DNA from: Bacteroidia bacterium
Lineage (GTDB): Bacteria > Bacteroidota > Bacteroidia > NS11-12g > UBA955
Reading direction: 5' to 3'
DNA: 64,000 nt
Assembly: GCA_040403495.1 (NCBI GenBank)
Contig: JBBAKM010000004.1
Location: 23,456 to 87,455, forward strand
Part shown: positions 14,082-43,730 of the stretch, one piece after another
Numbering within the stretch: the first letter of the stretch is position 1
Layout: the number at the start of each line of letters is the position of its first letter
Notes under the pieces: model-generated
Told to the model about the DNA's origin: nothing
The model's input: the letters and a program-made list of their open reading frames with translations, nothing else
The model's database searches: none
Position numbers and translations under genes: made by a program

Positions 14082-14945
14082 ATGAAAGGAATAATATTAG
14101 CAGGAGGAAGTGGAACAAGATTGCATCCACTTACATTGGCAATGAGTAAACAAATGATGCCTGTTTATGATAAGCCAATGATTTATTATCCACTGTCCAC
14201 TTTAATGATGGCAGGAATTAGAGAAATATTAATCATTTCGACGCCTCACGATTTGCCTAATTTTCAAAAACTATTGGGAGACGGAAGTCAGTTGGGTTGT
14301 CGTTTTGAATACGCAGAACAAGCTGTGCCTAATGGGTTAGCGCAAGCATTTGTAATTGGTGAATCATTTATTGGTAACGATAAAGTCGCTTTAATTTTGG
14401 GAGATAATATCTTTTTTGGCGCATCTTTACAAAACGTGTTACAAGAAAACAATGACCCTGAGGGAGGTGTAATTTTTGCATACCATGTGAGTGACCCTGA
14501 ACGCTATGGAGTTGTGGAGTTTGATGAACATCTTAATGCAGTAAGTATTGAGGAAAAGCCATTGGTCCCTAAGTCTAATTTCGCTGTTCCGGGCTTGTAT
14601 TTTTACGATAATCAAGTGGTGGAAATAGCTAAAAATTTAAAGCCATCACCACGTGGGGAATATGAAATCACCGATGTTAACAAAGAATATTTAAACAGAG
14701 GTCAGTTAAAAGTTGGTTTGCTCAAAAGAGGAACCGCTTGGTTGGATACAGGAACTTTCAATAGTTTAATGCAAGCAGGTCAGTTTGTTCAAGTCATTGA
14801 AGAACGCCAAGGATTGAAAATTGGTAGTATCGAAGAAGTGGCTTGGAGAATGAAATACATCGATGACAGTCAGCTCGAAAAAATTGCTTCACCATTAGTA
14901 AAAAGTGGTTATGGTAGTTATTTAATAAACCTTATAAAAAAATGA
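14082..14945 (+). CDS. rfbA: Glucose-1-phosphate thymidylyltransferase.
   Basis: The product has [16 protein letters not shown]...[17 protein letters not shown], diagnostic of RmlA. Confidence 0.95.
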
Positions 14946-15730
14946 AAAAAGTAGGTCAAATTTTGTTTTTGGTAGTTGGATTGTTGTTTTTGAACTCATG
15001 CAAAATGTATAAGTCCAATATCATATTAAAAACAGAAAAAGAAACTTTGAATTGGAAGCAAACTTATCAGAAAGTGATAGTTGAATATCCTATTTCAATT
15101 GGGGATAAAATTCAGTTTTCTGTATTTACCAATTCAGGAGAAAACATCATTGAACCATCAGGAAAGTTAGTAAAAGTAGAAACGAGTTCTACTTCTACCT
15201 CTTCTTCTACAGAATCTACAGGGGGGATTAGTTACGAAGTTTTAGAAAATGGAACCTGTCATTTCCCACTCATTGGTAGAATCAATGTCGTAGGGTTAAA
15301 AATTTCACAAATTGACAGTATGTTGGCTCAAAAATACGAAACCTATTACAATGATGTTTATATTATATCGAAAGTCATCAATAGAAAAGTGGTAGTAATA
15401 AATGGCATTGCAGGTCAATTAATTCCCTTTAGACCAAACATGAATTTGTTCGAAGTAATTGCTTTAGGAGGAGGGTTAAGTAATACTGCTAAAGCTTATA
15501 ATATTAGAATAGTAAGAGGGGATTTAAATAAGCCTGAGATAACTGTAGTGAATTTAGCAACAGTTAAATCAATGAAAGAAACCATTGTAAACATAATGCC
15601 ATATGATATAATATACATAGAGCCTGTAAGAAAGCCTGTTACAGAAAGTATAAGTGACAATATTGTGTTTTTAAATATCACTCAATTGTTATTTACTTTT
15701 TATATAATCTTTAATAATACCAACAGATAA
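14942..15730 (+). CDS. wza: Polysaccharide export outer-membrane protein (Wza/Poly_export family).
   Basis: The product has a lipoprotein signal LNSCK, a GDKIQFSVF Poly_export motif and an SLBB-like C-terminal region. It lies immediately upstream of wzc. Confidence 0.7.
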
Positions 15731-15733
15731 AGG

Positions 15734-18118
15734 ATGAAATCATTTGATCTTAATCAGCCAGTTCTTAATCAAGGTAGTAGCGACTCTGGTTTTAATATTG
15801 AAAAATTATTTTTGCTACTCAAAAGGGTTTGGTATTGGATTCCTATCAGTGTTATTTTGTTTTTAGGGGTTGCTTATTATTATCTTAAATATACTAAACC
15901 TGTTTATCAAGCACAATCTCTTATTAAATTAGAACTACCTAAGGAACCTTCAGAATTAGGGTTGACTAATTTTAATTCGAAACAAAATGAAGATTTACTT
16001 GGTGAGGTTGAACTCATTAGATCGCCTTTAGTAGCCAATGATGTGCTGTCATTGCTCGACTTAAATGTTTCCTACTTTGCTATAGGGGAATTAATTACGA
16101 CTGAGATTTATAAGTCTTCCCCTTTTGAAATTGTTGTATTTTCCGATCCCAATACTGTTCTTTACGACCAGCTCTTTTACATTACATTTACTAGTCCCTA
16201 TGAGTTTAAATTGGCTAATGAAGAAAAAGCTATAGCAGAATCCAAAACCTATAGAATTGGAGAAACAATTCAATTTCAGGGATTTAAGTTTGCGATTAAA
16301 ACAGTTGAGAACAAGGGTATGATGCTTGATCAAATGACCTACTGCTTTAAAATCAACAGCAAAGGTTCATTAAGCAATTTTTTATTAAGCAATGTAGGTG
16401 TTGAAATAGCAAACAGTGATGCCCGAACTATTGTTATTTCTTTTAAAGACAATAACAGAAAGAAAGCGATAGATATAGTGGATGCTTATAACCAAGCTTA
16501 CTTAAAACAATCTACTCAGAAAGAACAAAAATCGCAAGAACAAACTTTAGCTTATATTGATAATCAAATTAGTGAAACATCTAACAAGTTGGAAGAGTAC
16601 GAAAAAGGGATAGAAAATTTCATGAAATTACATGGAACCACTTCCCCACTTTCTGAATATGCCGAAATAAGTACAGGTGTAAATGAATTGCAAAAGATAA
16701 AAGAGGAAGTTGATAAAACAAGCTCAAGCATTGACAAAATACAAGCATTTATCCAAAGAGATGAAAGTAAAGACAATGTTATTCCTTTAATTATAGGGTT
16801 AGAAAACAACCAAATAGCTCAAAGTTTGGATGAGTTAAATGGTCTTTACAAACAAAGAGAATTGCTGAAATTTTCTAACAAAGAGGTTTCCATGGCTTAC
16901 AGAAGAATTGAACTTGAAATTTCGCTTTTAAAATCAAGATTACTCTCTTATGTTCAAGAAACCAAGAAGTTTATAAACGAACAAAAAGCAGAAATCAACA
17001 GTAAAATAGGAGAGTTTAAAAATCAATACTCCAGCTTGCCAAATAAAGAAACTGAACTCAATAGATTGAAAAGGTTTAATGCATTGTACGAAAAGTTTTA
17101 TTTAAGTCTGATAGAGAAACAAATAGAATATCAAATTTCAAAAGCAGGGACAGTGCCTGAATTTACTATTTTGTCTAATGCTTATGCCGATGAAAATCCG
17201 ATTTCTCCTAATAAACAAAAAATTTATCTAGGCTTTATTATCATTTCTTTTTTGCCCACAGTTTTATATATACTTTATCAATATCTCTTTAATAATGTTA
17301 TCTTTTCTCGTAAAAACTTAGAGAAAAAATTATTGGCTCCAATTTTGGGAATAGTGCCTTCTTATAATGATAAAATGCCAGCCTCTACTATCGTGGTTGA
17401 TAAAAATCCAAAATCTGCCATCAGTGAATCCTTACGTTCTATAAGGACAAATTCTGAGTTTATGTTAACCAAAAAACAACATCAGATTTATGGGGTAACA
17501 TCCACCGTGAGTGGAGAGGGTAAAACATTTTTTGCTATCAACTACGCAGCCATTCTTGCGATGTCTGGAAAAAAAGTAATTGTATTGGACTTGGATATGA
17601 GAAAACCCAAAATCCATATAGGTTTTAATGTGCCAAATAATCTTGGAATTAGCTCTGTATTATCAGGTTCTGTAGATTATAAAGAAACTATCAAACAGTC
17701 CACAGTTAAAAATTTGGATTTTATTACTGCAGGTCCTATTCCTCCTAATCCTAATGAACTATTACTTAAAAAGGAATTTGATATTTTAGTAGATAGCTTG
17801 TTCGAAGATTATGATGTAATTATGGCAGACAATCCTCCGATAGGTTTGGTGTCTGATGCGAATGTGGTATTCAGACGTTGCGATTTGTCCATTTATGTAG
17901 TTAGAGCAGGTTATACCAAAGAATCGGTTGTCGATGGCATTAATCAACTTTACCAAAAAAGAATATATGACAACTTCTCAGTAGTTATGAATGATGTCAA
18001 TAACTCTAATACTTATGGTCAATATGGCTATGGAAATAGCTATGGCTACGGGTATTATCAAGACGATAAAGTTTCTAGTAAAACTGTGTTTTGGAAAAAA
18101 TGGTTTAAGAAAAACTAA
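15734..18118 (+). CDS. wzc: Polysaccharide co-polymerase / BY-tyrosine kinase (Wzc-like).
   Basis: The product has two TM segments flanking a coiled-coil periplasmic domain, a Walker A box GVTSTVSGEGKT with VIVLDLDMRKP, and a C-terminal Tyr cluster YGQYGYGNSYGYGYYQDD. Confidence 0.9.
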   Translation: MKSFDLNQPVLNQGSSDSGFNIEKLFLLLKRVWYWIPISVILFLGVAYYYLKYTKPVYQAQSLIKLELPKEPSELGLTNFNSKQNEDLLGEVELIRSPLVANDVLSLLDLNVSYFAIGELITTEIYKSSPFEIVVFSDPNTVLYDQLFYITFTSPYEFKLANEEKAIAESKTYRIGETIQFQGFKFAIKTVENKGMMLDQMTYCFKINSKGSLSNFLLSNVGVEIANSDARTIVISFKDNNRKKAIDIVDAYNQAYLKQSTQKEQKSQEQTLAYIDNQISETSNKLEEYEKGIENFMKLHGTTSPLSEYAEISTGVNELQKIKEEVDKTSSSIDKIQAFIQRDESKDNVIPLIIGLENNQIAQSLDELNGLYKQRELLKFSNKEVSMAYRRIELEISLLKSRLLSYVQETKKFINEQKAEINSKIGEFKNQYSSLPNKETELNRLKRFNALYEKFYLSLIEKQIEYQISKAGTVPEFTILSNAYADENPISPNKQKIYLGFIIISFLPTVLYILYQYLFNNVIFSRKNLEKKLLAPILGIVPSYNDKMPASTIVVDKNPKSAISESLRSIRTNSEFMLTKKQHQIYGVTSTVSGEGKTFFAINYAAILAMSGKKVIVLDLDMRKPKIHIGFNVPNNLGISSVLSGSVDYKETIKQSTVKNLDFITAGPIPPNPNELLLKKEFDILVDSLFEDYDVIMADNPPIGLVSDANVVFRRCDLSIYVVRAGYTKESVVDGINQLYQKRIYDNFSVVMNDVNNSNTYGQYGYGNSYGYGYYQDDKVSSKTVFWKKWFKKN

Positions 18119-18864
18119 TGTTTTTGCTGAATAATTTATTTAAGAAAAAAGCATCACCTAATACGCCTGTTTTATGTGATATGCACAATCACATATTGTT
18201 TGGTATAGATGATGGCTCTAAGACATTAGATTATTCAATAGAAATGATTCACCAAATGATGAATTTAGGGTTTAAAAAATTGATTTTTACACCGCATGTC
18301 ATCAGTGATTATTATCCCAATAACAAGGAAACTATTTCTACCCCCTTTTTGGCTCTTCAACAATATGTTCAAGAGAATCATTTAGACATCAAAATTGAAT
18401 ATGCTGCTGAACACTTAATTGATGATGTTTTTATTCAAGATTTAAAAAGTAATCCTGAAAATATATTAAGCTTCGGGAATAAGAACGTTTTAATCGAAAC
18501 GCCATTTATCAACCAACCAATACAACTCGAACAAGTCATTTTTGATTTAATTAACAAAGGATTTACTCCCATATTAGCTCATCCCGAACGTTATGTTTAT
18601 TTGCAAAGTGATTATGAATTGGTAAATAAAATATTTCAAACCGGCGTTAAATTTCAAATCAACTTATTGTCCCTTATCTCACATTATTCGCCTCAATCAA
18701 CGAAGTTGGCAAAGTATCTTATCGAAAACAAACTCTATCACTATGTGAGTTCCGATGCGCATAAATTGTCACACATTGAACAGTTAGAAGAAGTGTATTC
18801 AAGTAAGTTGTTTGGTAAAATAGAAGTTGAGCGATTGTTGAACAATCAATTAGTTGGCGAATAA
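18118..18864 (+). CDS. cpsB: PHP-family protein-tyrosine phosphatase (CpsB/YwqE type).
   Basis: The product has CDMHNHILFGIDDG...FTPHV...AHPERY metal-binding motifs. It is the cognate phosphatase for the BY-kinase. Confidence 0.85.
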   Translation: MFLLNNLFKKKASPNTPVLCDMHNHILFGIDDGSKTLDYSIEMIHQMMNLGFKKLIFTPHVISDYYPNNKETISTPFLALQQYVQENHLDIKIEYAAEHLIDDVFIQDLKSNPENILSFGNKNVLIETPFINQPIQLEQVIFDLINKGFTPILAHPERYVYLQSDYELVNKIFQTGVKFQINLLSLISHYSPQSTKLAKYLIENKLYHYVSSDAHKLSHIEQLEEVYSSKLFGKIEVERLLNNQLVGE

Positions 18865-20280
18865 ACCAGCAGACCAATTCAAACTGTAATTGGATTTGTT
18901 GAACTTATAGAATGCCTCTAATCTTTTTAAACGGCTTTCGTAAAGTTTTTGTTCTCTGGAGTTGATTAAGAAAATACTGCTTTCACCCAATTCAAATCTC
19001 GACTTTTCTGCATTTAATACACGGTTAAAGTTTTCGACCATTGAACTTGCCAAATTAACCTGACTTTGATATAAGTTAGTTTGTACTTTATAGTCTAATA
19101 TTTTATTTACAATACTGTTTTTAACCTGTTCAAAGGTGTAATTATTGTCAGAGATTTTTAGTTTAATAGATTGTAACTGACCTCTTTCTGCACGAAGAAA
19201 GATAGGGAACTGAACATCTACACCCCATTTGTAGTTCTGTGAAAAGTTGTTGTTGGCAATGCTAGGATTACGAGTGGCGTCATTTAATAGCACATTGTAG
19301 TTTACATCTATTTTGGGTAATAACTTATTAAACTTCAATTTTTCTTCCAATTCCAACTGTTCTATCTTTTGTTCAATACTCTTTACTTTTGGATGGTTTT
19401 GTGCCAGAAGGGTAGCTTCGTTTTTTAGTAAAGAATCATTTAAAATAAACTCTAATTCATCCACAACTGTTGGAATTATATTTTGTTCCAAAAATATAGG
19501 CTGATTGTTTTCGTTCCACAAAAAAGTATTGAGTTGAAATTTGATAGAGTTTAATTGGATAATCTCTTCTGCCAATAACATTTCAAAACTTTGTAGTTGT
19601 GATAGAGCTTCCACTGTATCTATGCTTGCAAGGTCACCAAACTCAACAGATTTTTTTAAGCCTACAATTCTCTCTCTGCCTATGTTTACAGCTTCTTTTA
19701 AAAGAGTTACTTTGGTGTATGAAAGCGACCATTCGTTGTAAGCATCATGGGCAGAAAATAATAAGTCGTTGACAGTATTTTGTCGGTCAAACTCACTTTG
19801 TTCAAGCATTGATTTTGCTTGTTTCAAAAATGTTCTTCTTTCATCAATCAATAATCCCGAACCTATACTAGCCTTAACTCCTGTATATAATAAGCCATTT
19901 GGAAGGTTTACGCGGTCACTTCCTATGTACTTGAATGAATTGTCACTCTCTCTTAATCCCTCATTAAACTCAAACCCTATTTTAGGTTGTAGGCCATACC
20001 AAGTAGGAATACTAACCTCGGTTAATAATTGTTGCCAGTAGTTTTTGTTATCAAATGTTTTTTGGTCAAACGAACCCCTAATTGTAGGGTCAAATTGTCC
20101 TCTAGCACTTAGTAAGTTAGCACGAGCTTGTTGTTTTAAAATCTCTGCTTGTTTTGCTACAGGGTGAAACTTCACAACAACCCCTACAAATTCTTTAAGA
20201 GAAAACACAAAAGTGGAATCAGCAGAAGCGCTGTATTGACAAAAAAGTAAAATAACGAGTGCTAAAATCTTACTTCTCAT
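18850..20280 (-). CDS. TolC-family outer-membrane efflux protein. The start is likely the internal Met at 20280; the ORF track's 20328 start would overlap the HlyD gene.
   Basis: The ~476-aa product has a signal peptide MRSKILALVILLFCQYSASA and repeated alpha-helical/beta-barrel OEP halves. It is the last gene of the ABC–HlyD–TolC operon. Confidence 0.85.
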   Translation of the reverse strand: MRSKILALVILLFCQYSASADSTFVFSLKEFVGVVVKFHPVAKQAEILKQQARANLLSARGQFDPTIRGSFDQKTFDNKNYWQQLLTEVSIPTWYGLQPKIGFEFNEGLRESDNSFKYIGSDRVNLPNGLLYTGVKASIGSGLLIDERRTFLKQAKSMLEQSEFDRQNTVNDLLFSAHDAYNEWSLSYTKVTLLKEAVNIGRERIVGLKKSVEFGDLASIDTVEALSQLQSFEMLLAEEIIQLNSIKFQLNTFLWNENNQPIFLEQNIIPTVVDELEFILNDSLLKNEATLLAQNHPKVKSIEQKIEQLELEEKLKFNKLLPKIDVNYNVLLNDATRNPSIANNNFSQNYKWGVDVQFPIFLRAERGQLQSIKLKISDNNYTFEQVKNSIVNKILDYKVQTNLYQSQVNLASSMVENFNRVLNAEKSRFELGESSIFLINSREQKLYESRLKRLEAFYKFNKSNYSLNWSAGLFAN

Positions 20281-21589
20281 TCTTTTTCTGGGTTTTGGTA
20301 GAATAATAAAAATCAGGAGGGAATCCATTCAAGTTACGCCAAATTTCGTACGCAACTCTAACATTTTTTAACAATCCTATTCCTCTGGCACCTCCGCCTA
20401 ATTGTATTTGTTTTGGCCAAGGATGTTCATTAGGGTCGGGGGACACTAATACACGGTATTTCCCATTTTCACTTATATCGCTGTCAATAACTGAAACTAC
20501 ACCGCCAAATGTACCATAACTTGCGCCGGGCCATCCCGAAAATACTATTGTTGGCCAACCATCAAACAGTATCCTAAACTGATTGCCTTTCTTTATTAAA
20601 GGCAAGTCCATTGGTTTTACATATAATTCTACCGCTAGGTTTGGTTGACTTGAGGTGATAGAAGCCACTTCTTCTCCTTGTTTGATGGTTTCTCCAATAC
20701 CCGATTTTCTGATTTTTACTATCTGACCTTTTCTTGGCGATAATAAAAAGTAATTCCCGTTTCTAATGGCGTAATTGCTGTATTGATTGTTTAGCTTAGA
20801 AAGTTCCTCGTCGGCTTTAAACATGTCTGAATTTGTGCTTTCTATTTCAGATTCTATTTTATATATCTTACTCAAAAATTCAGATTCAATGGTGTTTAAC
20901 TCAGTTATGGCATTAATATTTTCACTCAAACTAATAGAAAGTTTTTGTGAAGCTACAATTTCTTTTGAAGCAGCCTCTTGTTCTTTGTTTCTTCTTTGCT
21001 CTAATACTATTAAACTAATATTACCCTCCTTAAAAAGTTTCTCCCCACGTTCTAATTGCTCTTTTGAAATTTTATAATTCACAACAGCGGCTTTGAGTTC
21101 AGCACTGTCTTGCCTTACTTTGTCTCGACTTTGTTTTACTTTAACTTTGGCTTGCGCAAGTTTATTGAATAGGTTTTGTTTTTCTGCACCAACTTGTGAT
21201 TCTAGGAATTTTACCTTACTTTCATAGGAACCGATAGCACCTTCTTTTGCTACAATTTGCTCTTTCGTTCTGTTTAGTAATTTGGGGTCAAAATATTGGT
21301 CTTTTATCTCAGAAATAAAGATGATGGTATCACCTTCTTCTACCAAGTCACCTTCTTTGACATACCATTTTTCAATACGACCATCAATGATGCTTTGAAT
21401 GCCTTGTGGTCTGTCATAGGGGGTTAACGTGGTGACTTTTCCTTCTGAGCTAATATTCTGTGTCCAAGGGAAAAACATTAAAACGACAATAAAAACAAAA
21501 GTGCCAATAATGTATTTTTTTAATTTTCTGGCAGTTTTTGGAACCGTTATTAATCGTTCGCAAAGGCTATTTGATAATATATCTTCCAT
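20270..21589 (-). CDS. HlyD-family membrane fusion protein (type I secretion adaptor).
   Basis: The product has an N-terminal TM segment, a long coiled-coil region and a C-terminal beta domain GGVVSVIDSDISENGKYRVLV typical of HlyD. Confidence 0.85.
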   Translation of the reverse strand: MEDILSNSLCERLITVPKTARKLKKYIIGTFVFIVVLMFFPWTQNISSEGKVTTLTPYDRPQGIQSIIDGRIEKWYVKEGDLVEEGDTIIFISEIKDQYFDPKLLNRTKEQIVAKEGAIGSYESKVKFLESQVGAEKQNLFNKLAQAKVKVKQSRDKVRQDSAELKAAVVNYKISKEQLERGEKLFKEGNISLIVLEQRRNKEQEAASKEIVASQKLSISLSENINAITELNTIESEFLSKIYKIESEIESTNSDMFKADEELSKLNNQYSNYAIRNGNYFLLSPRKGQIVKIRKSGIGETIKQGEEVASITSSQPNLAVELYVKPMDLPLIKKGNQFRILFDGWPTIVFSGWPGASYGTFGGVVSVIDSDISENGKYRVLVSPDPNEHPWPKQIQLGGGARGIGLLKNVRVAYEIWRNLNGFPPDFYYSTKTQKKNEK

Positions 21590-21594
21590 TTATC

Positions 21595-23325
21595 TTAATT
21601 TAGTGTTTCTGTTATTTCAACTCTGTTTTTAATGTTTTCAAAATGGTCGTTTATTTTTATTTCTCCTTTTTCGAGATAAACAATTCTATCGCACATTGAG
21701 GCAAGTACACTGCTGTTGCTTACTATAATCAATGTCCATTTTGCTTCTTTTGAGGTTAGAAGACTGCATATTCTTGCTTCATCCTCACGGCCCATTGTGC
21801 CTATAAAATCTTCTACTAGCAATATTGATGGCTTCAATATTAAGTTTCGTGCAATTTCTATTTTTTTAACAATGGAATTAGAGAGTAACTCGTCGTTAGG
21901 ATACAATACCGTGTTCAATCCGTTTGGAAGATTGCCAATAAATTCAGTTAAATTAGTGTCTTCCAGCGCTTTGATAATTTGACTCATGTCTATGTCCTTT
22001 CGTCCCAAGGTTAAGTTTTCATACAAACTGCCATTGAATATACTTTGATTGCCAAAATCGCCTGATATATAGGTGTATAAATCTTCTAAATTGATGTTTT
22101 TAAGAGATATTTTATTGAATAAAATGTTTCCCTCATAATTTTGATTGATACCCGACAGTAAATTAGATAAAGTTGATTTTCCTGACCCTCCTTTTCCAAC
22201 TAAACAAACTTTTTCTCCCGGTTTGATAGTTAAGTTGACGTTTTTTAAAATTTTAGCGTCGTAAATCATTGAATTAACCGATAGATTGCTAATTTCAATT
22301 TCGATTTTATTGTCCTGTGATTCTAATTTATAGACCCCCTGTTCATCTATAGGAATGGTCAATACTTGGTCTAGTTTTTCTGCACTCGTTGCCACATCAT
22401 AAATGGCTTCTAAGCTTGTAATTAATTTTTCTACAGAACTAATTACCAAAATAATAATGATTTCTGAAGCAACGAATTGTCCAATATTGATTTGTTCAGC
22501 AAAGATTAAATTAGTTCCAATTATTAATAAACCTGAGGTTACTAATAATTTGAACCCTACCAAAAACCAATATTGTTGTATTAGTATTTTAAAGTGTCCT
22601 TTTCTCTCTTTCAACCAATGTGAAACCAATTTGTCAGTTTTGCGTAACGAGAAATCTTTGTGATTGTTCAGTTTGAAAATCTTTTGATTCCTTGCTACTT
22701 CTTCTAACCAAAACACAACCTTATACTTCATTTTAGATTCCTTTAAACTAGAGGCTATACCTCTTGGTAAAGTAAAACGGAGTAAAATAAACAATAAGAA
22801 TATTAAAAATAAACCAAAGAAAACAAAGAAAGGATGGTAAAATGAAAGCAATAACAATCCAAAAAGAACCTGAAAAATAGCGGATGTGAAATCAATCAAT
22901 ATTTTATTTAATCCCTTTTGTATGTTCGTAGCGTCAAAAAAACGATTCACCAATTCAGGTAAATAAACATTATTCAGAGATTCATTTTTAAATCGTGGTA
23001 TTTTGTGCGCAAACTCAAAAGCAGTAGTTGCAAATATTCTTTCTTGAATGCTTTCTGATATCCACATCTGCATAATTTGCAGAAACCCAGAGAATAAAAG
23101 ACCCAATAATACCAATGAAATCAACAAGTATAGCGAAAACGACATTTGCGCTCCCATAATAAATCCTATGATTGATTGAATTCCTAAGGGTAATGATAAT
23201 GCGATGATTCCCGAAAAAATTGCGTAACCATACATCAAATAAACATCCTTGGCGCTTGGTTTTAAAAGTTTAAAAAACTTACGGATTGGTATTAAATAAT
23301 TTATAAAGTGTGTATTTTGTTCCAA
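21595..23325 (-). CDS. ABC exporter (TMD + NBD fusion, no C39 peptidase domain) with a degenerate NBD.
   Basis: The product has six predicted TM helices and a Walker A box GKGGSGKST. Its signature is LSNSI instead of LSGGQ, its Walker B is ILLVED with D and E swapped, and the H-loop His is absent (IVSNSSV). Confidence 0.85.
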   Translation of the reverse strand: MEQNTHFINYLIPIRKFFKLLKPSAKDVYLMYGYAIFSGIIALSLPLGIQSIIGFIMGAQMSFSLYLLISLVLLGLLFSGFLQIMQMWISESIQERIFATTAFEFAHKIPRFKNESLNNVYLPELVNRFFDATNIQKGLNKILIDFTSAIFQVLFGLLLLSFYHPFFVFFGLFLIFLLFILLRFTLPRGIASSLKESKMKYKVVFWLEEVARNQKIFKLNNHKDFSLRKTDKLVSHWLKERKGHFKILIQQYWFLVGFKLLVTSGLLIIGTNLIFAEQINIGQFVASEIIIILVISSVEKLITSLEAIYDVATSAEKLDQVLTIPIDEQGVYKLESQDNKIEIEISNLSVNSMIYDAKILKNVNLTIKPGEKVCLVGKGGSGKSTLSNLLSGINQNYEGNILFNKISLKNINLEDLYTYISGDFGNQSIFNGSLYENLTLGRKDIDMSQIIKALEDTNLTEFIGNLPNGLNTVLYPNDELLSNSIVKKIEIARNLILKPSILLVEDFIGTMGREDEARICSLLTSKEAKWTLIIVSNSSVLASMCDRIVYLEKGEIKINDHFENIKNRVEITETLN

Positions 23326-23373
23326 TGTTATTTATTTTTTGTCAAATTTATTAATATTAAGAGAATATTTTGC

Positions 23374-23422: not shown

Positions 23423-24559
23423 ATGCTCCATTACAACAAAGAAACAGTCAATAAGGTTTTGATAACAAGTGCTTTATTGTTTATAAATGCCTTATTTTGT
23501 GTTAAATATTTTGAACGTTATACCACATTGTATCCATTAGTCACTGTATTTTTACTTTCCCTACAAGTTGGTGTTTTGTATTTTTCTTTTTACGGCAAAT
23601 GCACCTTAAAGCAACAAAAAATAATCAAATACTTGTTGTTAATCCTAGCCGTTTTAGGTTCTCTCTTTGTTTTTCGTAAAATACACATTTCTTCTTTAAA
23701 TGTTGACAGATGGAGCGTTATATATTCTTTTTGGGAGGCTTTTTTTAATGGCGATTACCCCTATTTTGCTAAGTCACACATGAATAATCCGCCCGGACCA
23801 ATGCCCATTTATTTTGTAATCGCTTTGCCGTTTTATTTGATAAATGAAATTGGTTGGATGCCCCTTGTTGCCGTTTTTATAGGAGTCCTTTTTATTAATA
23901 AGCTAATCAAAAACCCCACTTCACAACTCGTTTTCATTCTTTTTATGTTCACTTTTATGGGGTTTTACTGGGAACTCCTGTCGCGAAGTACCATTTTGTT
24001 AAATTCATTTTTGGTATTAATTGTGCTCCTATACAGTGAAAAAAGTATTGCCCGACAAAATTATTCCTTTTATCTCAGCGCCCTCTTAACAGGTGTAATT
24101 TTATCAACCCGAATGGTCTTTGTTATGCCTTTTCTCTCCTTGGGAATTATGACCTTGCTTAGTAAAAAAGTTTCGTTTTCTAGGCTATTCAGCTGGACTG
24201 CATTAGCTCTCTTTGCCTTTGCTCTCACTTTCTTGCCATTTTATATCGGTTTCCAAGAATCGTTTTTCGTAATGAACCCATTCAAAGTACAATCAGGGTT
24301 TTTGTTGCCTTCCATTTACAATTACTTATTTATATTCATTTCAATAGTACTGAGTTTGTTTTTTTATAATCAATTAAGTCTTTTACTACTGTCGGGATAC
24401 TCATTGTTTATAAGTATATTTATTTATTTTGTTTACCATTTAATGCATTCAGGATTGCAAGGTGCTTATTTTCAAAGTGGTGCAGATATTTCTTATTTTT
24501 TATTTTGTGTTCCGTTTTTATTAATGCATTTTTTAATAGAAAAGAAAATAAAAATTTAA
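23423..24559 (+). CDS. Polytopic integral membrane protein of unknown function.
   Basis: The 378-aa product has ~10 hydrophobic helices and no recognisable catalytic motif. Confidence 0.45.
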   Translation: MLHYNKETVNKVLITSALLFINALFCVKYFERYTTLYPLVTVFLLSLQVGVLYFSFYGKCTLKQQKIIKYLLLILAVLGSLFVFRKIHISSLNVDRWSVIYSFWEAFFNGDYPYFAKSHMNNPPGPMPIYFVIALPFYLINEIGWMPLVAVFIGVLFINKLIKNPTSQLVFILFMFTFMGFYWELLSRSTILLNSFLVLIVLLYSEKSIARQNYSFYLSALLTGVILSTRMVFVMPFLSLGIMTLLSKKVSFSRLFSWTALALFAFALTFLPFYIGFQESFFVMNPFKVQSGFLLPSIYNYLFIFISIVLSLFFYNQLSLLLLSGYSLFISIFIYFVYHLMHSGLQGAYFQSGADISYFLFCVPFLLMHFLIEKKIKI

Positions 24560-24590: not shown

Positions 24591-27500
24591 ATGTCTGTAA
24601 ACACTCAACTTACCTATGATGAAAAATTTGAACAAATTTATCAATCCCTAAATTCAAATCAACAAGAAGCGGTCAACCATATAGATGGTCCTACTATGGT
24701 TATAGCAGGGCCCGGAACAGGAAAAACTCAAATATTAGCAGCTAGAATTGCCAATATATTAAAACAAACCGATACGGCGCCCTACCAAATATTATGTGTA
24801 ACTTTCACTGATGCCGGTGTTGTGGCAATGCGCAGTCGTTTGGAAAGTTTTATTGGTCCCATCGCCTATCAAGTTAATATTCATACATTTCACTCTCTTT
24901 GTAATCAAATCATATTAGAAAATACCGATTATTTTGGATACAAGTCTGTGCAAGCCGCCTCTGATTTGGAAATATTGCAAGTAATAAGTGAAATTATAGA
25001 CGAATTACCTGCACAACATCCAATAAAAAAACTAAAAGGGGATGTCTATCAAGAGGCTATCGATTTAAAAATTCTATTTTCAATTATGAAGAAAGAAGAT
25101 TTTTCAGTTGAATTTATCAAAACAAGAACAGACAAACACTTGGAAGACATGCTTGAAAGTGGTGATTTTTACTATAAAAGAGCTTACAAAGACAAAAAAG
25201 CAGGCGACTTAAAAGAAGATAGTTATAATCAAGAACTTCAAAAGCATGAACGACTGAAAGCCGCTGCCGAATTGTACTCTACTTTTACCCAAAAAATGAA
25301 GGAAAAAGGTTGGTATGATTTTGACGATATGATTCTTTGGGTTATCAATGCATTTAAAGATGATCCCTCTTTTTTGCTCAATTATCAAGAGCAGTTCTTA
25401 TACTATTTAGTTGATGAATTTCAAGACACCAATGGTTCTCAATTAGAGTTAATTAATTTGTTGGCAAGGTATGATGATAATCCCAATTTGTTTGTGGTAG
25501 GTGATGAAGATCAATCAATTTACCGTTTTCAAGGAGCAAATATTAATAATATAATAGATTTTGAGGAAGCCTATAAAAGTCATATTCATACCACTGTTTT
25601 AACCGATAATTACCGTTCATCACAGTCTATATTGGATGCTTCAAAAGCTTTGATTTCCTATAATACAGAACGCATTACAAGTGTAGATAAAGTGCTTTTG
25701 GCCAAAGGAGCAGTGAATGGCGCTTTCCCTAAATTGCCGCCAAGTTTGGAAGTGTATCAAAATAATCTCCAAGAAGTGGTCGGTATTGGAAACCAAATAA
25801 AAGCGCTGCATCAGCAAGGGGTAGCATACAAGGATATTGCAGTTTTGTACAGAAATCACAAACATGTAGATGACCTAATTGCTTACTTCAATATTCATAA
25901 AATGCCATACAGTTCATTTAAGAAAGTGAATGTGTTGGAGGAGCTTTTGATTAAAAAATTACTAACTATCCTAAAGTATATAGAAGCGGAAAATAAAAAG
26001 CCATTCTCGGGGGAATCCATGTTATTCCAAATTTTAAATTATGATTTTTATAACATTCATCCCTTAGATATTGCTAAAATTTCGGTTGAAATTTCCAAGT
26101 CAAGAAAAAAATGGCGAGAGTTTCTAGGTGAGAAAACCCAAGTTAATGCGTCCTTGTTTGACAATGTGAGTTCAAGTGAATCGAAAGCAGAACTTAATAG
26201 ATTGGTGTCCGATTTGGAATATTGGATTAAACAATCTAATAATTTAACACTCCCTCAATTGGTTGAGAAAATTATTGCCAAAGGTGGTGTTTTGAGCTAT
26301 GTAATGCATGCGCCTGATAAAAGATGGCAACTGCAAGTGTTAAGAACGTTTTTTGATTTTGTAAAAGCCCAAGCCGCCAAAAATCCTCAAATTTCAATTA
26401 ATGATTTGGTGCAATTGGTAGCAGAATACAACCGTTTTGGTATTTCATTGGATGCCATACAAATGACTTCCTCCCCTGACAGTGTCAATTTGATGACATT
26501 GCACAAAAGTAAAGGACTCGAATTTGCTTATGTTTTTATGATTAAAAGTACTGAATCTGATTGGTCCAAAAAAGGGGGAAATAAACGCGATTTTAATGTT
26601 GCTAAATATGTAAGTTCACGCGTTGATTCTGTTGCTGACCAAAGGGATATTGAGGAGTTAAGACGTTTGTTTTTTGTGGGAATGACAAGGGCAAAAAAAC
26701 AACTTACCATTTCATATTACAGTAAAACCATTAATGACAAAGAGGTTAGTAAATTGCAATTCGTGTCTGAATTAATTGAAAGTGCTGGATTGCAAGAAAA
26801 AAATGCACAAGTGGATGAAACAGATTTGTTTGATTTCGAAAGTGCCTTTTACCGCTTTGAGGAAACACCTGATTTTGACCTTATCGATCATGCTTTCATT
26901 GATGAAATTCTTAAAAATTACATGCTTTCAGTGACGCATCTCAACTCTTATTTAAAGTGTCCAATCACTTTTTATTTCAACAATGTATTGAGAGTGCCGA
27001 GTGCCAAAAATGAAAATCTAGCTTTCGGAACTGCCGTTCACGCTGCATTTGAGAATTTATTAAAAGAGAAAGCATCACAATCTGCATTGCCAGATGTTTC
27101 TTTATTCTTGTCAAGCTTTGTAAAGTCAATGCACCAAAATAGAGACAGTTTTACAGATAAATCTTTTGAAAGAATGATGATTCATGGGCAAGATGTTTTA
27201 ACAGCCTATTATCAAAATTATCAAAATGATTTAGCCACACTTACCACTTTTGATGTTGAGAAAAACTTAAACTCTGTTAATTTTAATGGCATTCCACTGA
27301 AAGGTAAGTTGGACTGTGTAATTACAGATGGTGCTAAAGCGTTTGTTGTTGATTTTAAGACTGGTAAATACGATAATGGCAAAAAGAAATGCAACCCACC
27401 TAAAGAGGGTGCTACCGAAGAAAGTAAGTTTGAAGAGCAATTTGGCGGTGATTATTGGAGACAAATGATGTTTTATGCCATATTGATAAAACACGATGAC

Positions 27501-27782
27501 CGATACAATAAACAAATGATTGGTGGTGAAATGGATTTTATAGAACCAAACGTGGTGGGAAATTCAACCAAATTCTTTAAAGAAAAATTCCAAGTATTGC
27601 CCAAAGAACTTGCCATTGTAGAACACCAAATCAAAGACACCTATTTTAAAATTAAAAACCATGAATTTGAAAATGGTTGTGGAAAAGAAGAATGTGATTG
27701 GTGTAATTTTGTAAAGTATTACCTAAAAAAAGAAGTTCATCTTAGTGAGCAATTGCCAGGTAGTCAGGTTGATGAAGATTAG
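24591..27782 (+). CDS. UvrD/REP-family helicase fused to a C-terminal PD-(D/E)xK (Cas4/AddB-like) nuclease with a Cys cluster.
   Basis: The product has a Walker A box AGPGTGKT, a DEFQDT DExx box, a helicase motif VI region VGMTRAKKQL, and a C-terminal nuclease with Cys residues (LKCP...CGKEECDWCNF). Confidence 0.85.
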   Translation: MSVNTQLTYDEKFEQIYQSLNSNQQEAVNHIDGPTMVIAGPGTGKTQILAARIANILKQTDTAPYQILCVTFTDAGVVAMRSRLESFIGPIAYQVNIHTFHSLCNQIILENTDYFGYKSVQAASDLEILQVISEIIDELPAQHPIKKLKGDVYQEAIDLKILFSIMKKEDFSVEFIKTRTDKHLEDMLESGDFYYKRAYKDKKAGDLKEDSYNQELQKHERLKAAAELYSTFTQKMKEKGWYDFDDMILWVINAFKDDPSFLLNYQEQFLYYLVDEFQDTNGSQLELINLLARYDDNPNLFVVGDEDQSIYRFQGANINNIIDFEEAYKSHIHTTVLTDNYRSSQSILDASKALISYNTERITSVDKVLLAKGAVNGAFPKLPPSLEVYQNNLQEVVGIGNQIKALHQQGVAYKDIAVLYRNHKHVDDLIAYFNIHKMPYSSFKKVNVLEELLIKKLLTILKYIEAENKKPFSGESMLFQILNYDFYNIHPLDIAKISVEISKSRKKWREFLGEKTQVNASLFDNVSSSESKAELNRLVSDLEYWIKQSNNLTLPQLVEKIIAKGGVLSYVMHAPDKRWQLQVLRTFFDFVKAQAAKNPQISINDLVQLVAEYNRFGISLDAIQMTSSPDSVNLMTLHKSKGLEFAYVFMIKSTESDWSKKGGNKRDFNVAKYVSSRVDSVADQRDIEELRRLFFVGMTRAKKQLTISYYSKTINDKEVSKLQFVSELIESAGLQEKNAQVDETDLFDFESAFYRFEETPDFDLIDHAFIDEILKNYMLSVTHLNSYLKCPITFYFNNVLRVPSAKNENLAFGTAVHAAFENLLKEKASQSALPDVSLFLSSFVKSMHQNRDSFTDKSFERMMIHGQDVLTAYYQNYQNDLATLTTFDVEKNLNSVNFNGIPLKGKLDCVITDGAKAFVVDFKTGKYDNGKKKCNPPKEGATEESKFEEQFGGDYWRQMMFYAILIKHDDRYNKQMIGGEMDFIEPNVVGNSTKFFKEKFQVLPKELAIVEHQIKDTYFKIKNHEFENGCGKEECDWCNFVKYYLKKEVHLSEQLPGSQVDED

Positions 27783-28310: not shown

Positions 28311-31217
28311 ATGTTTTATAAATCTCTTTTTATTTTTACTTTCTTTGTTTTTACAAGTACACAAGCCCAATCTTGGCTTCAGTCTGCCGATTCAAGCGCT
28401 AGTTTTTTCGAAATTCAGAATAAATTTTACACCTACTGGAATCAACGCCCTATGGAAAAAGGGGCAGGATATACCGTTTTTAAAAGATGGGAATGGTTTT
28501 GGGAAACTAGGGTAGGTCAGTCGGGTCAATTCCCTAATCCTAATCATGACAGGTTGGAATGGAATAAATTCGACCAAAATAGTACCAAAAGAAACAGTAG
28601 CAAAAGCTGGAGAAGTATCGGTCCGTTTACCACTCCAAGTGGATACCATGGTTTGGGTAGAATTAATTGTGTGGCATTTCACCCAAGCGATAAATTTACA
28701 TTTTGGGTTGGTACACCCGGCGGTGGAATTTGGAAAACGGATGACATGGGTTTTACGTGGACTACCACATCGGATAAAAATCCTGTTCTTGGTGTTAGTA
28801 GTATCGCTATTCATCCTACTGTGCCTGACACCATGTATATAGCAACCGGCGATGGTGACCGAGGTAGTTTGTCGGGCATGACCGGTGGTGCAAGAGGAGA
28901 TAGTAAAAGTGTTGGTGTGTTAATGTCTGCTGATGGAGGTAAAACTTGGAAAACAACAGGACTGAATTGGCAAATAAACCAATCTTTCTTGATAAGAACG
29001 CTTATAATGAATCCAAAAAAACCATGGATTTTACATTGTGCAACTTCAGATGGAATCTACAGAACTCTTAATGCAGGAAAAACGTGGACAAGAGCAATTA
29101 CGGGTTACTACATGGATATTGAATTTAAACCAAACAATCCAAATGTTATTTTTGCAACTTCATTCGATTTGAATGGGAATGTCCGAATTTATAGGTCATT
29201 GAATGGTGGTGCGAATTATACATCGTTAAGAACTATTTCTAATGGGTCTAGAATAAAAATTGCTACAACAGCAGCAAACCCTAACAAAGTGCATTTTTTG
29301 GTGGCTCACAAAACGGGTGGAGGTTTAGAAGGGCTGTATGAAACCCTTGACAGTGGAAATACAATAGCAGTGAAGTTTAATACAAGTAACTTGCTGTCAA
29401 ATAAATATGACGGAAGTGGAACCACCGGACAAGGATGGTATGACTTGGCTTATGCTATTGCGCCTAACAATGAAAATATAGCCTTTTTGGGTGGTGTAAA
29501 TACATGGAAATCAACCAATGGTGGCAGCAATTGGACACTCAATAATTTTTGGACAGGTTATGAGCCATTTAATCCAGATCAAGTTAATGTTGTTCATGCA
29601 GATAAACATTTTTTAATGTATCACCCTTTAGATAATTCCTTGTTATTTGAATGTAATGATGGAGGCATTTACATGTCTTCTAATGCGGGTTCCTCTTGGA
29701 CCGATATAACAGGGAATATGGCCATTACTCAGTTTTACAGAATTGGTTATACCGAATCAGATTCTTCTTTGATAATAGGTGGAACCCAAGACAATGGTGC
29801 AAGGGTATTTAGAGACGAAGAATGGTATGAAGCAACAGGTGGTGATGGTATGGAATGTGCCATTGATTATAATAATTCTGACATCATATACTCTTCTTAT
29901 GCATACGGAAGATTGTACAGAAGCGATGATGGATTCCTTTCAGGAAATTATTCCACCATATCAGATAATATTCCCGAAGCAGGATCAGGTGCTTGGGTTA
30001 CGCCATTTTTAATCGACCCTAATGAGCCTTCAAAATTATATGCAGCCTATAAAACAGTATATATATCAAATGATTACGGTGATACTTGGGATGATATTTT
30101 TTCAAGTGTTACCAATAATTCTTTACTCAGAAATATAGCTGTTGCCAAAGGAGACAGTCGCTATATTTATGTAGGTGATTACTACAATATTTGGAAAACA
30201 GACAACGGCGGAACCACTTGGACCAAAATAGTATCTTCGTCCCCACAACCCATCACCATGATAAAAGCGCATCCAAGTAATCATAATATTATTTATTACA
30301 CACTTTCTTCATACAGTGCTGGTAATAAGGTGATTAAATTTAATAGTTCCATGCCAATTGGTTCTCAAAGAGAGAATATTTCTAGTAATTTACCCAATAT
30401 CAGTGTCAATTGTATCCAATTGTCCGCTGCCAAAAACGAAGCCATGTACATTGGGACTGACTTAGGGGTGTTTTATAGGGATTCTTCAAGTAACAGTTGG
30501 GAAGTTTTGAATGGTAATTTGCCTAATGTTGTCGTTACAGATATTGAGGTAAATATGACCCAAAATAAATTAGTGGCAGCTACCTACGGAAGAGGAATTT
30601 GGCAAACCAATTTGTTGGATGAGGAATTGGCAAAAGTGGTTAGTTTAAATCCAGCACAGTTAAGTATAAACAATTCGATTGCAAGCAAACCGGTAATTAA
30701 TTATAATAAACCGATAGTCAAAGGAATTGGAACCATTGTTATTAAAGAAAACGATGAAATTGTATCCATATTGAATGTAGATTCGAGCGCTGTAAGTATC
30801 AATGGAACTCAAGTTGAAATAAATCCGGGTGTTCAATTCAAGTTAAGTTCAACAGTGGATATAGAAATTCCTAATGGAACTTTTGTGGATTTGTTGGGAT
30901 ACAATGTGCTTGCAATGGCTAAAAATGCTTGGCAATTTAATATTGAAGCCTTTGTGTCAATTGAGGATTTAAAAAATGACCAATCTTTCAAGCTGTTTCC
31001 AAACCCTGTTCATCAATTGTTAAATGTGAGTATTAATAATGATTGGATTCATTCTGAATATGAAATTTTTGATTTTACAGGCAAACTGATTGAAAAAGGA
31101 GAATTTAATGCGTTGCAAAATGAAGTAGTTACATCTACTTATCAATCAGGGTTATACAGCTTGAAGATGAGTAAAGGGCAACAAGTGAAGACGCAATATT
31201 TTATCGTCAATCACTAA
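28311..31217 (+). CDS. BNR/sortilin(VPS10)-repeat protein with a T9SS C-terminal sorting domain.
   Basis: The product has many S-x-D-x-G-x-T-W-type repeats (TDDMGFTWT, SADGGKTWKT, NAGKTWT, TDNGGTTWT) and a C-terminal Por-secretion tail (KLFPNPVHQLLNV...YFIVNH). Confidence 0.75.
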   Translation: MFYKSLFIFTFFVFTSTQAQSWLQSADSSASFFEIQNKFYTYWNQRPMEKGAGYTVFKRWEWFWETRVGQSGQFPNPNHDRLEWNKFDQNSTKRNSSKSWRSIGPFTTPSGYHGLGRINCVAFHPSDKFTFWVGTPGGGIWKTDDMGFTWTTTSDKNPVLGVSSIAIHPTVPDTMYIATGDGDRGSLSGMTGGARGDSKSVGVLMSADGGKTWKTTGLNWQINQSFLIRTLIMNPKKPWILHCATSDGIYRTLNAGKTWTRAITGYYMDIEFKPNNPNVIFATSFDLNGNVRIYRSLNGGANYTSLRTISNGSRIKIATTAANPNKVHFLVAHKTGGGLEGLYETLDSGNTIAVKFNTSNLLSNKYDGSGTTGQGWYDLAYAIAPNNENIAFLGGVNTWKSTNGGSNWTLNNFWTGYEPFNPDQVNVVHADKHFLMYHPLDNSLLFECNDGGIYMSSNAGSSWTDITGNMAITQFYRIGYTESDSSLIIGGTQDNGARVFRDEEWYEATGGDGMECAIDYNNSDIIYSSYAYGRLYRSDDGFLSGNYSTISDNIPEAGSGAWVTPFLIDPNEPSKLYAAYKTVYISNDYGDTWDDIFSSVTNNSLLRNIAVAKGDSRYIYVGDYYNIWKTDNGGTTWTKIVSSSPQPITMIKAHPSNHNIIYYTLSSYSAGNKVIKFNSSMPIGSQRENISSNLPNISVNCIQLSAAKNEAMYIGTDLGVFYRDSSSNSWEVLNGNLPNVVVTDIEVNMTQNKLVAATYGRGIWQTNLLDEELAKVVSLNPAQLSINNSIASKPVINYNKPIVKGIGTIVIKENDEIVSILNVDSSAVSINGTQVEINPGVQFKLSSTVDIEIPNGTFVDLLGYNVLAMAKNAWQFNIEAFVSIEDLKNDQSFKLFPNPVHQLLNVSINNDWIHSEYEIFDFTGKLIEKGEFNALQNEVVTSTYQSGLYSLKMSKGQQVKTQYFIVNH

Positions 31218-35992: not shown

Positions 35993-36025
35993 GATATTTG
36001 TTTTATTTTAATATTGTAACTTGTA

Positions 36026-36373
36026 TTACTTTATTTTATTGATAAGCTTTTGATTTTGATCTCTCAAGTATTTATTTTCTTCTTTCAATAGCTTAATTTC
36101 GTTTTCTTGAATCATTAATTGATGGATATATCCATAATTGTAATTAACTGAGTTTTCTGAATTATTGAAATTGTTAGTTACGTTATTGCTGAGAAGTTCA
36201 TTAAAATCGATTTCATAAATTTTAGCAAATTTAATCAACTTAGAAATATCTGGTTTAATTTTGCCAGTTTCAATTTTACTGTAATCTGATTGTTCAATTC
36301 CAAGCTCTGATGCAATTTTTTGCTGATCCCAACCTTTTTCTAGTCTTAATTTTTTTAGATTTTTGTGTATCAT
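36026..36373 (-). CDS. XRE-family helix-turn-helix transcriptional regulator with a C-terminal coiled-coil.
   Basis: The product has LKKLRLEKGWDQQKIASELGIEQSDYSKIETGK (HTH_3). It is divergent from the first lipoprotein/OMP module. Confidence 0.8.
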   Translation of the reverse strand: MIHKNLKKLRLEKGWDQQKIASELGIEQSDYSKIETGKIKPDISKLIKFAKIYEIDFNELLSNNVTNNFNNSENSVNYNYGYIHQLMIQENEIKLLKEENKYLRDQNQKLINKIK

Positions 36374-36486
36374 TATTAATATATTTGTTTTATTTTTTTA
36401 GGAAATTATGAAGACTCAATAAATTTAATTATTTTCGATTCGTTATTTTAAATATTGATTCAAACACTAATGAAAAAAACTCGCAT
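36347..36486 (+). promoter_or_regulatory. Leader/promoter block, copy 1, shared by both lipoprotein-OMP modules.
   Basis: Bases 36391-36486 (tatatttgttttatttttttaggaaattatgaagactcaataaatttaattattttcgattcgttattttaaatattgattcaaacactaatgaaaaaaactcgc) are near-identical to 39936-40034. Confidence 0.6.
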
Positions 36487-39866: not shown

Positions 39867-40034
39867 ATTTTTGTGTATCATTATTAAAAAATAGAATATA
39901 TTCATCAAAAATTGAATTTTTTGATGAATATATTTGTTTTATTTTTTTGGGAAATTATGAAGACTCAATAAATTTAATTATTTTCGATTCGTTATTTTAA
40001 ATATTGATTCAAACACTAATAAAAAAACTCGCCT
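39862..40034 (+). promoter_or_regulatory. Leader/promoter block, copy 2, with a palindrome-containing insertion.
   Basis: This copy matches copy 1 but inserts aaaatagaatatattcatcaaaaattgaattttttgatgaatatatt, which contains the perfect inverted repeat TTCATCAAAAAttgaaTTTTTTGATGAA. It also retains the first ~7 codons of the XRE gene in reverse complement (gtgtatcat). Confidence 0.6.
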
Positions 40035-43366: not shown

Positions 43367-43399
43367 ATTTATTCATTGTAGGTAGGGGCTTTAAGTTAT

Positions 43400-43720: not shown

Positions 43721-43730
43721 CGTATTCTAG

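Follow-up and report, generated by a model that had tools for sequence, protein, structure and literature searches.

A probable pseudo-ATPase in a family of ABC-type tripartite exporters of Bacteroidota

The DNA examined here is a stretch of 64,000 nucleotides (hereafter the window) from a Bacteroidia bacterium, taken from contig JBBAKM010000004.1 of assembly GCA_040403495.1 (positions 23,456 to 87,455 of the forward strand). It contains an operon that begins with the gene of an ABC-type half-transporter and continues, on the same strand, with the genes of a HlyD-family periplasmic adaptor and a TolC-like outer-membrane factor (Table 1), which is the architecture of a type I secretion system (T1SS) or of a tripartite ABC efflux system. 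ATP-driven transport is classically exemplified by ABC exporters. In the half-transporter described here, a strongly conserved transmembrane domain (TMD) is joined to a nucleotide-binding domain (NBD) whose ATPase motifs are largely degenerate, and the same is true of a large family of Bacteroidota proteins, for which transport without ATP hydrolysis is the probable reading. An original prediction, made from the sequence of the window, had described the gene as the ABC component of a T1SS with a degenerate NBD; an ABC exporter with such an NBD, encoded within a HlyD/TolC operon, was indeed recovered by Pfam searches and by the comparison of related loci.

The ABC gene was read from a TTG codon at position 23325, because it is preceded, three codons upstream, by an in-frame TAA and because the family-conserved residues P13, F17, and L21 precede M31, the first ATG of the open reading frame (ORF). 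The identical 576-residue product is present in the gene calls of three metagenome contigs. The protein matched the Pfam families PF00664 (ABC_membrane, 38.5 bits) and PF00005 (ABC_tran, 63.9 bits), both above cut-off, and an MsbA-like protein encoded elsewhere in the window (51217-53034) matched these families far more strongly (156.8 and 117.3 bits, respectively). No Pfam match to Peptidase_C39 was detected in the 576-residue protein, which begins about 25 residues before the first transmembrane helix (TM1), and none to SbmA_BacA. Its AlphaFold2 model (mean predicted local distance difference test score, pLDDT, of 78) has the type IV ABC exporter fold. The best Foldseek match to the model was the core of PCAT1 (TM-score 0.88), and TM287/288, MsbA, and TmrAB were also among the matches; comparison of the model with PCAT1, TM287/288, and MsbA gave TM-scores of 0.84-0.90, and SbmA was absent from the top 50 structural matches. 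The NCBIfam scores, in bits with the cut-off in brackets, were 123 (726) for TIGR01846 (HlyB), 126 (510) for TIGR01842 (PrtD), 174 (693) for TIGR03375 (LssB), 181 (853) and 122 (709) for the NHLP models TIGR03796 and TIGR03797, and 131.5 (524) for TIGR01193. The best of these matches, though weak, fall in the group of T1SS and bacteriocin-exporter ABC proteins, and none reaches its cut-off.

The motifs of the NBD were placed by HMMER against ABCB1, by BLASTP against the MsbA-like protein of the window, and by MAFFT with 120 and with 145 relatives; their coordinates were checked by translation, and six canonical NBD features were counted in each sequence. All six are present in the MsbA-like protein, which had already been described as fully canonical, compared with one of six in the 576-residue protein. 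The canonical Walker A motif, the LSNSI signature, the ILLVED string at Walker B, and the missing H-loop histidine had been picked out by eye in the original prediction, and the three methods placed them where the prediction had; the losses of the Q-loop glutamine and of the D-loop are additions to that list. The position of the H-loop histidine is occupied by S536 according to HMMER and BLASTP or by N537 according to MAFFT, and neither is a histidine. An error of hand alignment was ruled out, as the three methods concur, no canonical residue appeared at an offset position, and the one-residue ambiguity at the H-loop brings no histidine into register. If the protein acts as a homodimer, both ATP sites are degenerate, as had been anticipated.

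Table 1 Coordinates of the features of the exporter operon within the window
Feature	Detail	Coordinates	Strand	Basis or remark
ABC-exporter-fold half-transporter	576 aa, TTG start, TMD and degenerate NBD	21595..23325	-	First gene of the operon
Transmembrane domain	aa 1-330, six long helices	22336..23325	-	Family-defining conserved core
Degenerate nucleotide-binding domain	aa 345-576, read as a pseudo-ATPase	21598..22293	-	Pfam ABC_tran and motif analysis
Walker A (P-loop)	GKGGSGKST, canonical, aa 377-385	22171..22197	-	HMMER/MAFFT
Q-loop equivalent	GDFGNQSIF, Gln position is G425	22036..22062	-	Alignments
Signature equivalent	LSNSI in place of LSGGQ, aa 481-485	21871..21885	-	HMMER/BLASTP/MAFFT
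Walker B equivalent	ILLVED opposite ILLLDE, Glu-Asp for Asp-Glu, aa 501-506	21808..21825	-	HMMER/BLASTP/MAFFT
D-loop equivalent	GTMG opposite SALD	21790-21801	-	Alignments
H-loop equivalent	IVSNS opposite IAHRL, without His, aa 534-538	21712..21726	-	HMMER/BLASTP/MAFFT
E288	TM6, 145/146, absent from the MsbA-like protein	22462..22464	-	Candidate proton-coupling or substrate-binding residue
K259	TM5, 140 K and 4 R of 146	22549-22551	-	Family-specific, same candidate set as E288
D145	TM3, D/E in 141/146	22891-22893	-	Family-specific, same candidate set as E288
Q50	144/146	23176-23178	-	Family-specific, same candidate set as E288
E91	146/146	23053-23055	-	Family-specific, same candidate set as E288
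Y163-H164	Periplasmic turn	22834-22839	-	Family-specific, same candidate set as E288
HlyD-family periplasmic adaptor	439 aa, ATG 5 nt after the ABC stop codon	20270..21589	-	Pfam HlyD_3 and Biotin_lipoyl_2
TolC-like outer-membrane factor (OEP)	492 aa, overlaps the end of the adaptor gene	18850..20328	-	Pfam, loci
TAAATTTG	Possible operon promoter, 17 nt upstream of the TTG start	23343..23350	-	Pattern match only

Nearly 8,000 proteins were matched at E ≤ 1e-10 in a word-indexed protein search with the 576-residue protein, in forms of about 573 and about 725 residues. Among the best 120 of these matches, which reach down to 44% identity, none had LSGGQ, the D-E pair, or the H-loop histidine at the aligned positions, and Walker A was kept there. 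A genome scan, restricted to one genome per species, identified at least 598 genomes with a relative, and the top 80 loci were examined with 10 kb around each. In these 80 genomes, the aligned Walker B pair was never D-E, the H-loop histidine was absent, and the Q-loop glutamine was found once (1/80); an alignment-free check with regular expressions detected a single hhhhDE string among the 81 genome-locus sequences. In a more diverse sample of 145 representatives at 50% identity, the number of canonical features was 0 (n = 34), 1 (45), 2 (42), 3 (23), or 4 (1), and none of the representatives had five or six. The losses are mosaic in this sample, in that some proteins have D-E, a few the histidine, and three an SGG, never combined. 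Regular expressions found the SGG[QE] signature in 0/145 representatives, and Walker A, sought in the last 270 residues, was wholly missing from 58 of them (40%). Walker A is kept in 117/119 near relatives of the window protein and in 71/81 genome-locus sequences. The replacements differ by clade, with LPDSI, LPSGE, or LSSSI at the signature and ED, ND, TD, or DN at Walker B; an acidic pair (ED, DD, or EE) is common at the latter, and SN is the majority state at the H-loop (42/80).

The degeneracy of the NBD had been noted in this gene and contrasted with the canonical MsbA-like protein. The degeneracy stands, and it is not peculiar to the gene: it is a trait of a large and sharply bounded Bacteroidota family rather than a case of local decay. 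Since the replacements are mosaic and clade-variable and the P-loop is lost in 40% of the representatives, the conserved function of the family probably does not require ATP hydrolysis, as judged from these sequences. The non-hydrolytic role that had been proposed as one of two options is, given the family-wide loss of motifs, the best reading of the data. The fold of the NBD is retained even in those representatives where nucleotide binding appears impossible. Examples without a P-loop, with strings such as SSDFDKLEG and TNDERYGIC, occur among both long and short forms (P0121-P0268).

The relatives belong nearly all to genomes labelled Bacteroidota among the matches listed, and include members of Pontibacter, Adhaeribacter, Polaribacter, Tenacibaculum, Salegentibacter, Roseivirga, Fulvivirga, Saprospiraceae, Cyclobacteriaceae, and Crocinitomicaceae. 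A search with the TMD alone (residues 1-330) against 1.84 billion cluster representatives recovered 2,040 proteins at E ≤ 1e-3 and 1,122 at E ≤ 1e-30. As the search yields only 2,040 proteins, the family is discrete and does not merge into the generic ABC exporters. It comprises roughly 1,100-1,650 clusters at 50% identity, and the product names of the cluster members are of the generic COG2274 type only. Neither our literature search nor the curated families searched contained a description of the family, and no precedent for ABC exporters that are doubly degenerate and coupled to HlyD/TolC emerged from the literature search. Two metagenome-assembled genomes labelled 'Candidatus Competibacteraceae' and 'Akkermansia' (L003 and L029) carry a Bacteroidota-type operon at 44-48% identity, which suggests mis-binning or horizontal transfer.

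The two domains of the half-transporter are conserved to different extents. Between related genomes, the ratio of non-synonymous to synonymous substitution rates (dN/dS) was 0.02-0.08 for the TMD and 0.04-0.29 for the NBD, values that are rough, as dS is near saturation in many pairs. Purifying selection maintains both domains, and the NBD evolves 2-3 times faster than the TMD in most pairs. Over the 80 loci, the median identity to the window proteins was 51% for the TMD, 35% for the NBD, 46% for the HlyD adaptor, and 33% for the TolC-like protein. Canonical exporters within the same loci show the usual pattern, with 20-23% identity in the TMD and 45-46% in the NBD. The constraint has thus moved away from the motor domain and now weighs on the membrane domain, which is the inverse of that pattern. 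Of the 43 positions conserved in at least 95% of the sequences, 41 lie in the TMD, and the two in the NBD (N437 and R493) also occur in the MsbA-like protein. The conserved core of the TMD is marked by the motifs LPLGIQ, PELVNRFFD, QKG..K, SFYHPFF, ESKxKY, and GQFVA.E.

Several of the conserved TMD positions are polar. Besides the residues listed in Table 1, Q152 and Q283 are family-specific conserved polar residues within transmembrane helices, and Q50, E91, D/E145, Q152, Y163-H164, K259, Q283, and E288 are all absent from the MsbA-like protein. By analogy with other ABC membrane domains, E288, K259, and D/E145 may possibly have a role in proton coupling. Indeed, MsbA-MD, which lacks the NBD, carries out a transport that depends on ΔpH and relies on transmembrane carboxylates (PMC4979069), and SbmA/BacA, which resemble ABC TMDs, are driven by protons, have a conserved ladder of glutamates, and have been described as an evolutionary link between transporter classes (PMC8442886, PMC13316013). 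LmrA-MD is cited in PMC8442886 as a further proton-driven ABC membrane domain. Together, the secondary transporters SbmA/BacA (SLiPT), MsbA-MD, and LmrA-MD provide the closest functional analogy for a pump with a non-catalytic NBD. SbmA/BacA differ in that they are stand-alone importers without an NBD or coupling helices, whereas the family described here has retained a folded NBD together with the conserved first intracellular loop PELVNRFFD, works with an adaptor and an outer-membrane channel, and presumably exports its substrate.

The long forms of the family point to its ancestry. One long-form relative was modelled with a pLDDT of 69, reaching 72-87 in its N-terminal domain over residues 41-140, and its top structural matches were full-length PCAT1 (690-700 aligned columns) and the HlyB subunit of the HlyB/D complex (728 columns). 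The structural alignment extends through the C39 or C39-like domain (CLD) of these proteins. The N-terminal domain of the long forms, of about 150 residues, has no conserved cysteine or histidine, and its profile gave no significant match against the PDB (best E = 0.33); its link to C39 or CLD is apparent from the structural alignment only. The family looks like a derivative of PCAT/HlyB transporters in which both enzymatic modules have been inactivated, and the N-terminal module lost in the short forms, including the window protein. With the T1SS and bacteriocin exporters of the PCAT1/HlyB type (COG2274; TIGR01846, TIGR03375, TIGR03796), the family shares the type IV fold, the HlyD and TolC partners, and, in its long forms, an N-terminal domain in the position of C39 or CLD. 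It differs from them in several respects: the window protein scores 123-181 bits against cut-offs of 694-853 bits and lacks C39 and CLD; its signature, Walker B glutamate, H-loop, Q-loop, and D-loop are degenerate; the TMD of the family has near-invariant polar residues of its own; and no gene for a leader-peptide or RTX-type substrate was found nearby, the usual upstream gene of the family being a TetR regulator.

The gene neighbourhood is conserved as well. The ABC-HlyD-TolC order was kept in essentially all of the 80 loci, which come from 80 different assemblies, wherever the contig was long enough, and the HlyD adaptor gene lies directly downstream of the ABC gene in 78 of them. A regulator is encoded directly upstream on the same strand in most cases, a TetR protein in 50/80 loci and an extracytoplasmic function (ECF) sigma factor in 11/80. 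The window and its close relatives L081-L083 are without such an upstream regulator (lost, or never acquired), and no TetR or ECF sigma homologue was found within the window. When the ORFs of at least 60 residues within 10 kb were clustered over the 80 loci, the TetR or ECF sigma gene was the only conserved neighbour beyond the operon; no conserved substrate gene and no consistent second ABC gene were found among these ORFs, and MsbA-like genes occurred in few loci, at differing positions and on differing strands. No C39 domain was found within the window either, in agreement with the original prediction, which had noted the lack of both a C39 domain and a nearby substrate gene. As for the assignment to type I secretion, the ABC/HlyD/TolC architecture holds, and protein secretion is unproven: the T1SS models score below cut-off, and TetR fits inducible efflux at least as well. 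The TetR context hints at the inducible efflux of a small molecule or envelope component rather than at classical protein secretion.

We regard it as fairly probable that the operon encodes a tripartite exporter with a pseudo-ATPase NBD, in which translocation is centred on the TMD and the proton gradient is the most likely energy source. The ABC-fold protein, the HlyD-type adaptor, and the TolC-like channel would together form an envelope-spanning exporter descended from PCAT/HlyB-type T1SS transporters, with both catalytic appendages inactivated in the lineage. The N-terminal C39 domain would be inactive in the long forms, as it appears to be, and absent from the short ones, and the NBD would persist, folded and docked to the TMD. 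Because its P-loop is intact, the NBD of the window protein probably still binds ATP. Because the catalytic residues of the window protein and the signature that it would donate are both missing, a homodimer and a heterodimer alike would be without a consensus site, and no canonical hydrolysis site should be able to form with itself or with any partner. Nucleotide binding would then at most gate or regulate transport, the NBD acting as a gate or dimerisation module, and translocation would rest on the unusually conserved membrane domain, energised most likely by protons through E288 in TM6, K259 in TM5, and D/E145 in TM3. The exporter is presumably a homodimer, and export would follow the HlyD/TolC duct. 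CFTR and SUR offer a parallel for such a role of the intact P-loop, as nucleotide binding at a degenerate site gates or regulates these proteins; they differ in that one hydrolytic site is kept, and they are eukaryotic full-length ABCC proteins outside tripartite envelope systems. If this reading is true, an ABC exporter architecture has been repurposed in nature for a transport cycle independent of hydrolysis. The family would then be a natural test case for the debated intrinsic proton coupling of ABC membrane domains, reported for LmrA, MsbA, and SbmA. It also draws attention to an envelope export system that is widespread in Bacteroidota and uncharacterised.

Several points weigh against a proton-driven pump with a pseudo-ATPase. 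The subfamily of the window protein keeps the P-loop (117/119) as well as an E-D acidic pair at Walker B, and, by analogy with other transporters, Asn537 could replace the H-loop histidine, so that a slow or non-canonical hydrolysis could occur in the window protein. The case for proton coupling is drawn from conserved polar transmembrane residues and from analogy; these residues could equally bind the substrate, and their placement in the membrane comes from hydropathy and the secondary structure of the model, not from coordinates. The search for a partner covered 10 kb around the 80 loci and the window, the near-saturation of dS makes the dN/dS values rough, and our literature search found no experimental study of any family member.

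A further-reaching version, which we put forward only tentatively, holds that the protein is an ABC exporter in form only: a tripartite pump derived from PCAT/HlyB that has switched to coupling with the proton motive force, or to a facilitated export gated purely by ATP binding, with a vestigial NBD serving for dimerisation or regulation. If this is true, the family would be a living intermediate between primary-active ABC exporters and NBD-less secondary transporters such as SbmA/BacA, and no earlier example coupled to HlyD and TolC would be known.

It is also possible, though unlikely, that transport is still driven by ATP in the window subfamily, with E505/D506, N537, and S482/S484 as a rearranged catalytic set that supports a slow but sufficient hydrolysis in the homodimer. 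The retention of Walker A in the near relatives and in most locus sequences, the frequent acidic pair at Walker B, the SN majority at the H-loop, and the purifying selection on the NBD are all consistent with it, and in nucleotide-binding site 2 (NBS2) of MRP1 the His-to-Asn and His-to-Gln mutants kept transport (PMC7756269). However, five of the six catalytic elements deviate together in the window protein. The SGG[QE] signature is absent from all of the 145 representatives and the P-loop from 58, yet the TMD is retained in these proteins, and so is the operon as far as it was examined, in the near subfamily. In addition, the clade-variable replacements argue for a relaxed catalytic constraint rather than for a new, fixed catalytic set.

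We consider it improbable that the assembly has no transport function and instead forms an envelope-spanning structural or signalling device, such as a tether or sensor, with the ABC fold as its scaffold. The loss of the catalytic motifs alongside strong conservation of the TMD and adaptor, as well as the lack of a conserved substrate gene nearby, would fit such a role. Nevertheless, an exporter, an adaptor, an outer-membrane factor, and a TetR regulator make up a standard arrangement for inducible efflux, and the conserved polar residues lie inside the transmembrane helices, where ABC exporters form their translocation cavity.

To our knowledge, only one of the two ATP sites is degenerate in the known cases, which are heterodimers or full-length transporters. 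The original prediction had offered, as its other option, a heterodimeric partner with complementary canonical motifs, that is, a canonical half-transporter encoded elsewhere in the genome that would supply the active ATP site; we now consider this very improbable. TM287/288 and TmrAB, heterodimeric exporters that rank high among the structural matches to the model, typically carry such degenerate motifs, at least one canonical exporter is encoded in the genome (51217-53034), and a partner in the remainder of the genome would have been outside the range of the search. TM287/288, TmrAB, BmrCD, and TAP1/2 resemble the window protein in their replaced glutamate, lost H-loop histidine, odd signature, and very similar fold (PMC7756269). 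They differ in that they retain one consensus site and are encoded by adjacent gene pairs: in the known heterodimers, the subunit without the catalytic glutamate and histidine keeps a canonical signature that completes the consensus site of its partner, and the transporters covered by the review of degenerate ABC sites all retain one active site (PMC7756269). Here, a single gene encodes a polypeptide in which Walker B, the H-loop, and the signature are degenerate together, and many of the relatives are without a P-loop. With the signature degenerate as well, no canonical site would form with a partner, given the composition of these sites (PMC7756269). Moreover, no consistent second ABC exporter gene was found within 10 kb in the 80 loci, where the MsbA-like matches were sporadic; the loci come from as many assemblies, with no sign of a paralogous partner; and a generic partner is made less likely by the lack of cross-matches between the TMD and those of generic ABC proteins.

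That the gene is a decaying relic, or a pseudogene in the making, could be suspected from its lost motifs and low ABC profile scores, but this is refuted by the conservation data: the gene has an intact reading frame in this genome as in those of hundreds of species, dN/dS lies far below 1 for the TMD as well as for the NBD, 41 TMD positions are at least 95% conserved, and the operon is strictly conserved.

The other genes and signals of the operon gave the following results. The adaptor matched the NCBIfam model type_I_hlyD below cut-off, and its only sequence match in the PDB was EmrA. For the TolC-like gene, gene callers use the ATG at 20280 as the start, which gives a product of 476 residues. 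The sequence TAAATTTG upstream of the ABC gene fits TAnnTTTG, which we take to be the -7 promoter consensus of Bacteroidota, and its use as a promoter would imply a very short leader. Scans for sigma-70 promoters and terminators over the operon returned no more sites than expected by chance. The intergenic space that flanks the operon is 97 nt upstream, and there is none downstream.

The gene across this upstream space (23423-24559, plus strand) is transcribed divergently and encodes a hydrophobic, polytopic membrane protein of 378 residues that has no Pfam or NCBIfam match. Its presence had been pointed out in the original prediction; it adjoins the ABC gene only in the near-identical metagenome contigs L081-L083, is absent from the 80 genome loci, and was rejected as a component of the system, to which it is probably unrelated. 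At the other end of the operon, a capsule or exopolysaccharide export cluster (14942-18864, plus strand) converges on the TolC-like gene. It encodes a Wza-like Poly_export protein, a Wzc-like tyrosine kinase of 794 residues, and a CpsB/PHP phosphatase, and the phosphatase ORF overlaps the 3' end of the TolC-like gene by 15 nt (18850-18864).

A probe of the window for NBDs detected only two ORFs, the ABC gene and the MsbA-like gene. Three other ORFs had been candidates for a partner of the ABC or PCAT type and were rejected: those at 37710-39866 and 41207-43366 match only the Plug domain of TonB-dependent receptors, and the one at 47665-49839 encodes a type III glutamine synthetase. The first two belong to tandem copies of a gene pair, 36487-37713 with 37710-39866 (408 and 718 residues) and 40035-41210 with 41207-43366 (391 and 719 residues), in which the small ORFs match nothing. 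The region from 36000 to 44000 has a G+C content of 24-27%, against about 33% elsewhere in the window. A protein of 968 residues with a Por_Secre_tail, the C-terminal domain of type IX secretion, is encoded at 28311-31217 (plus strand), which fits the Bacteroidota origin of the DNA, and a fusion of a UvrD helicase with a PDDEXK nuclease (1063 residues) at 24591-27782 (plus strand). Finally, two paralogous genes of the alanine dehydrogenase/PNT family lie on opposite strands about 1.3 kb apart, at 847-1959 (minus strand) and 3311-4426 (plus strand).

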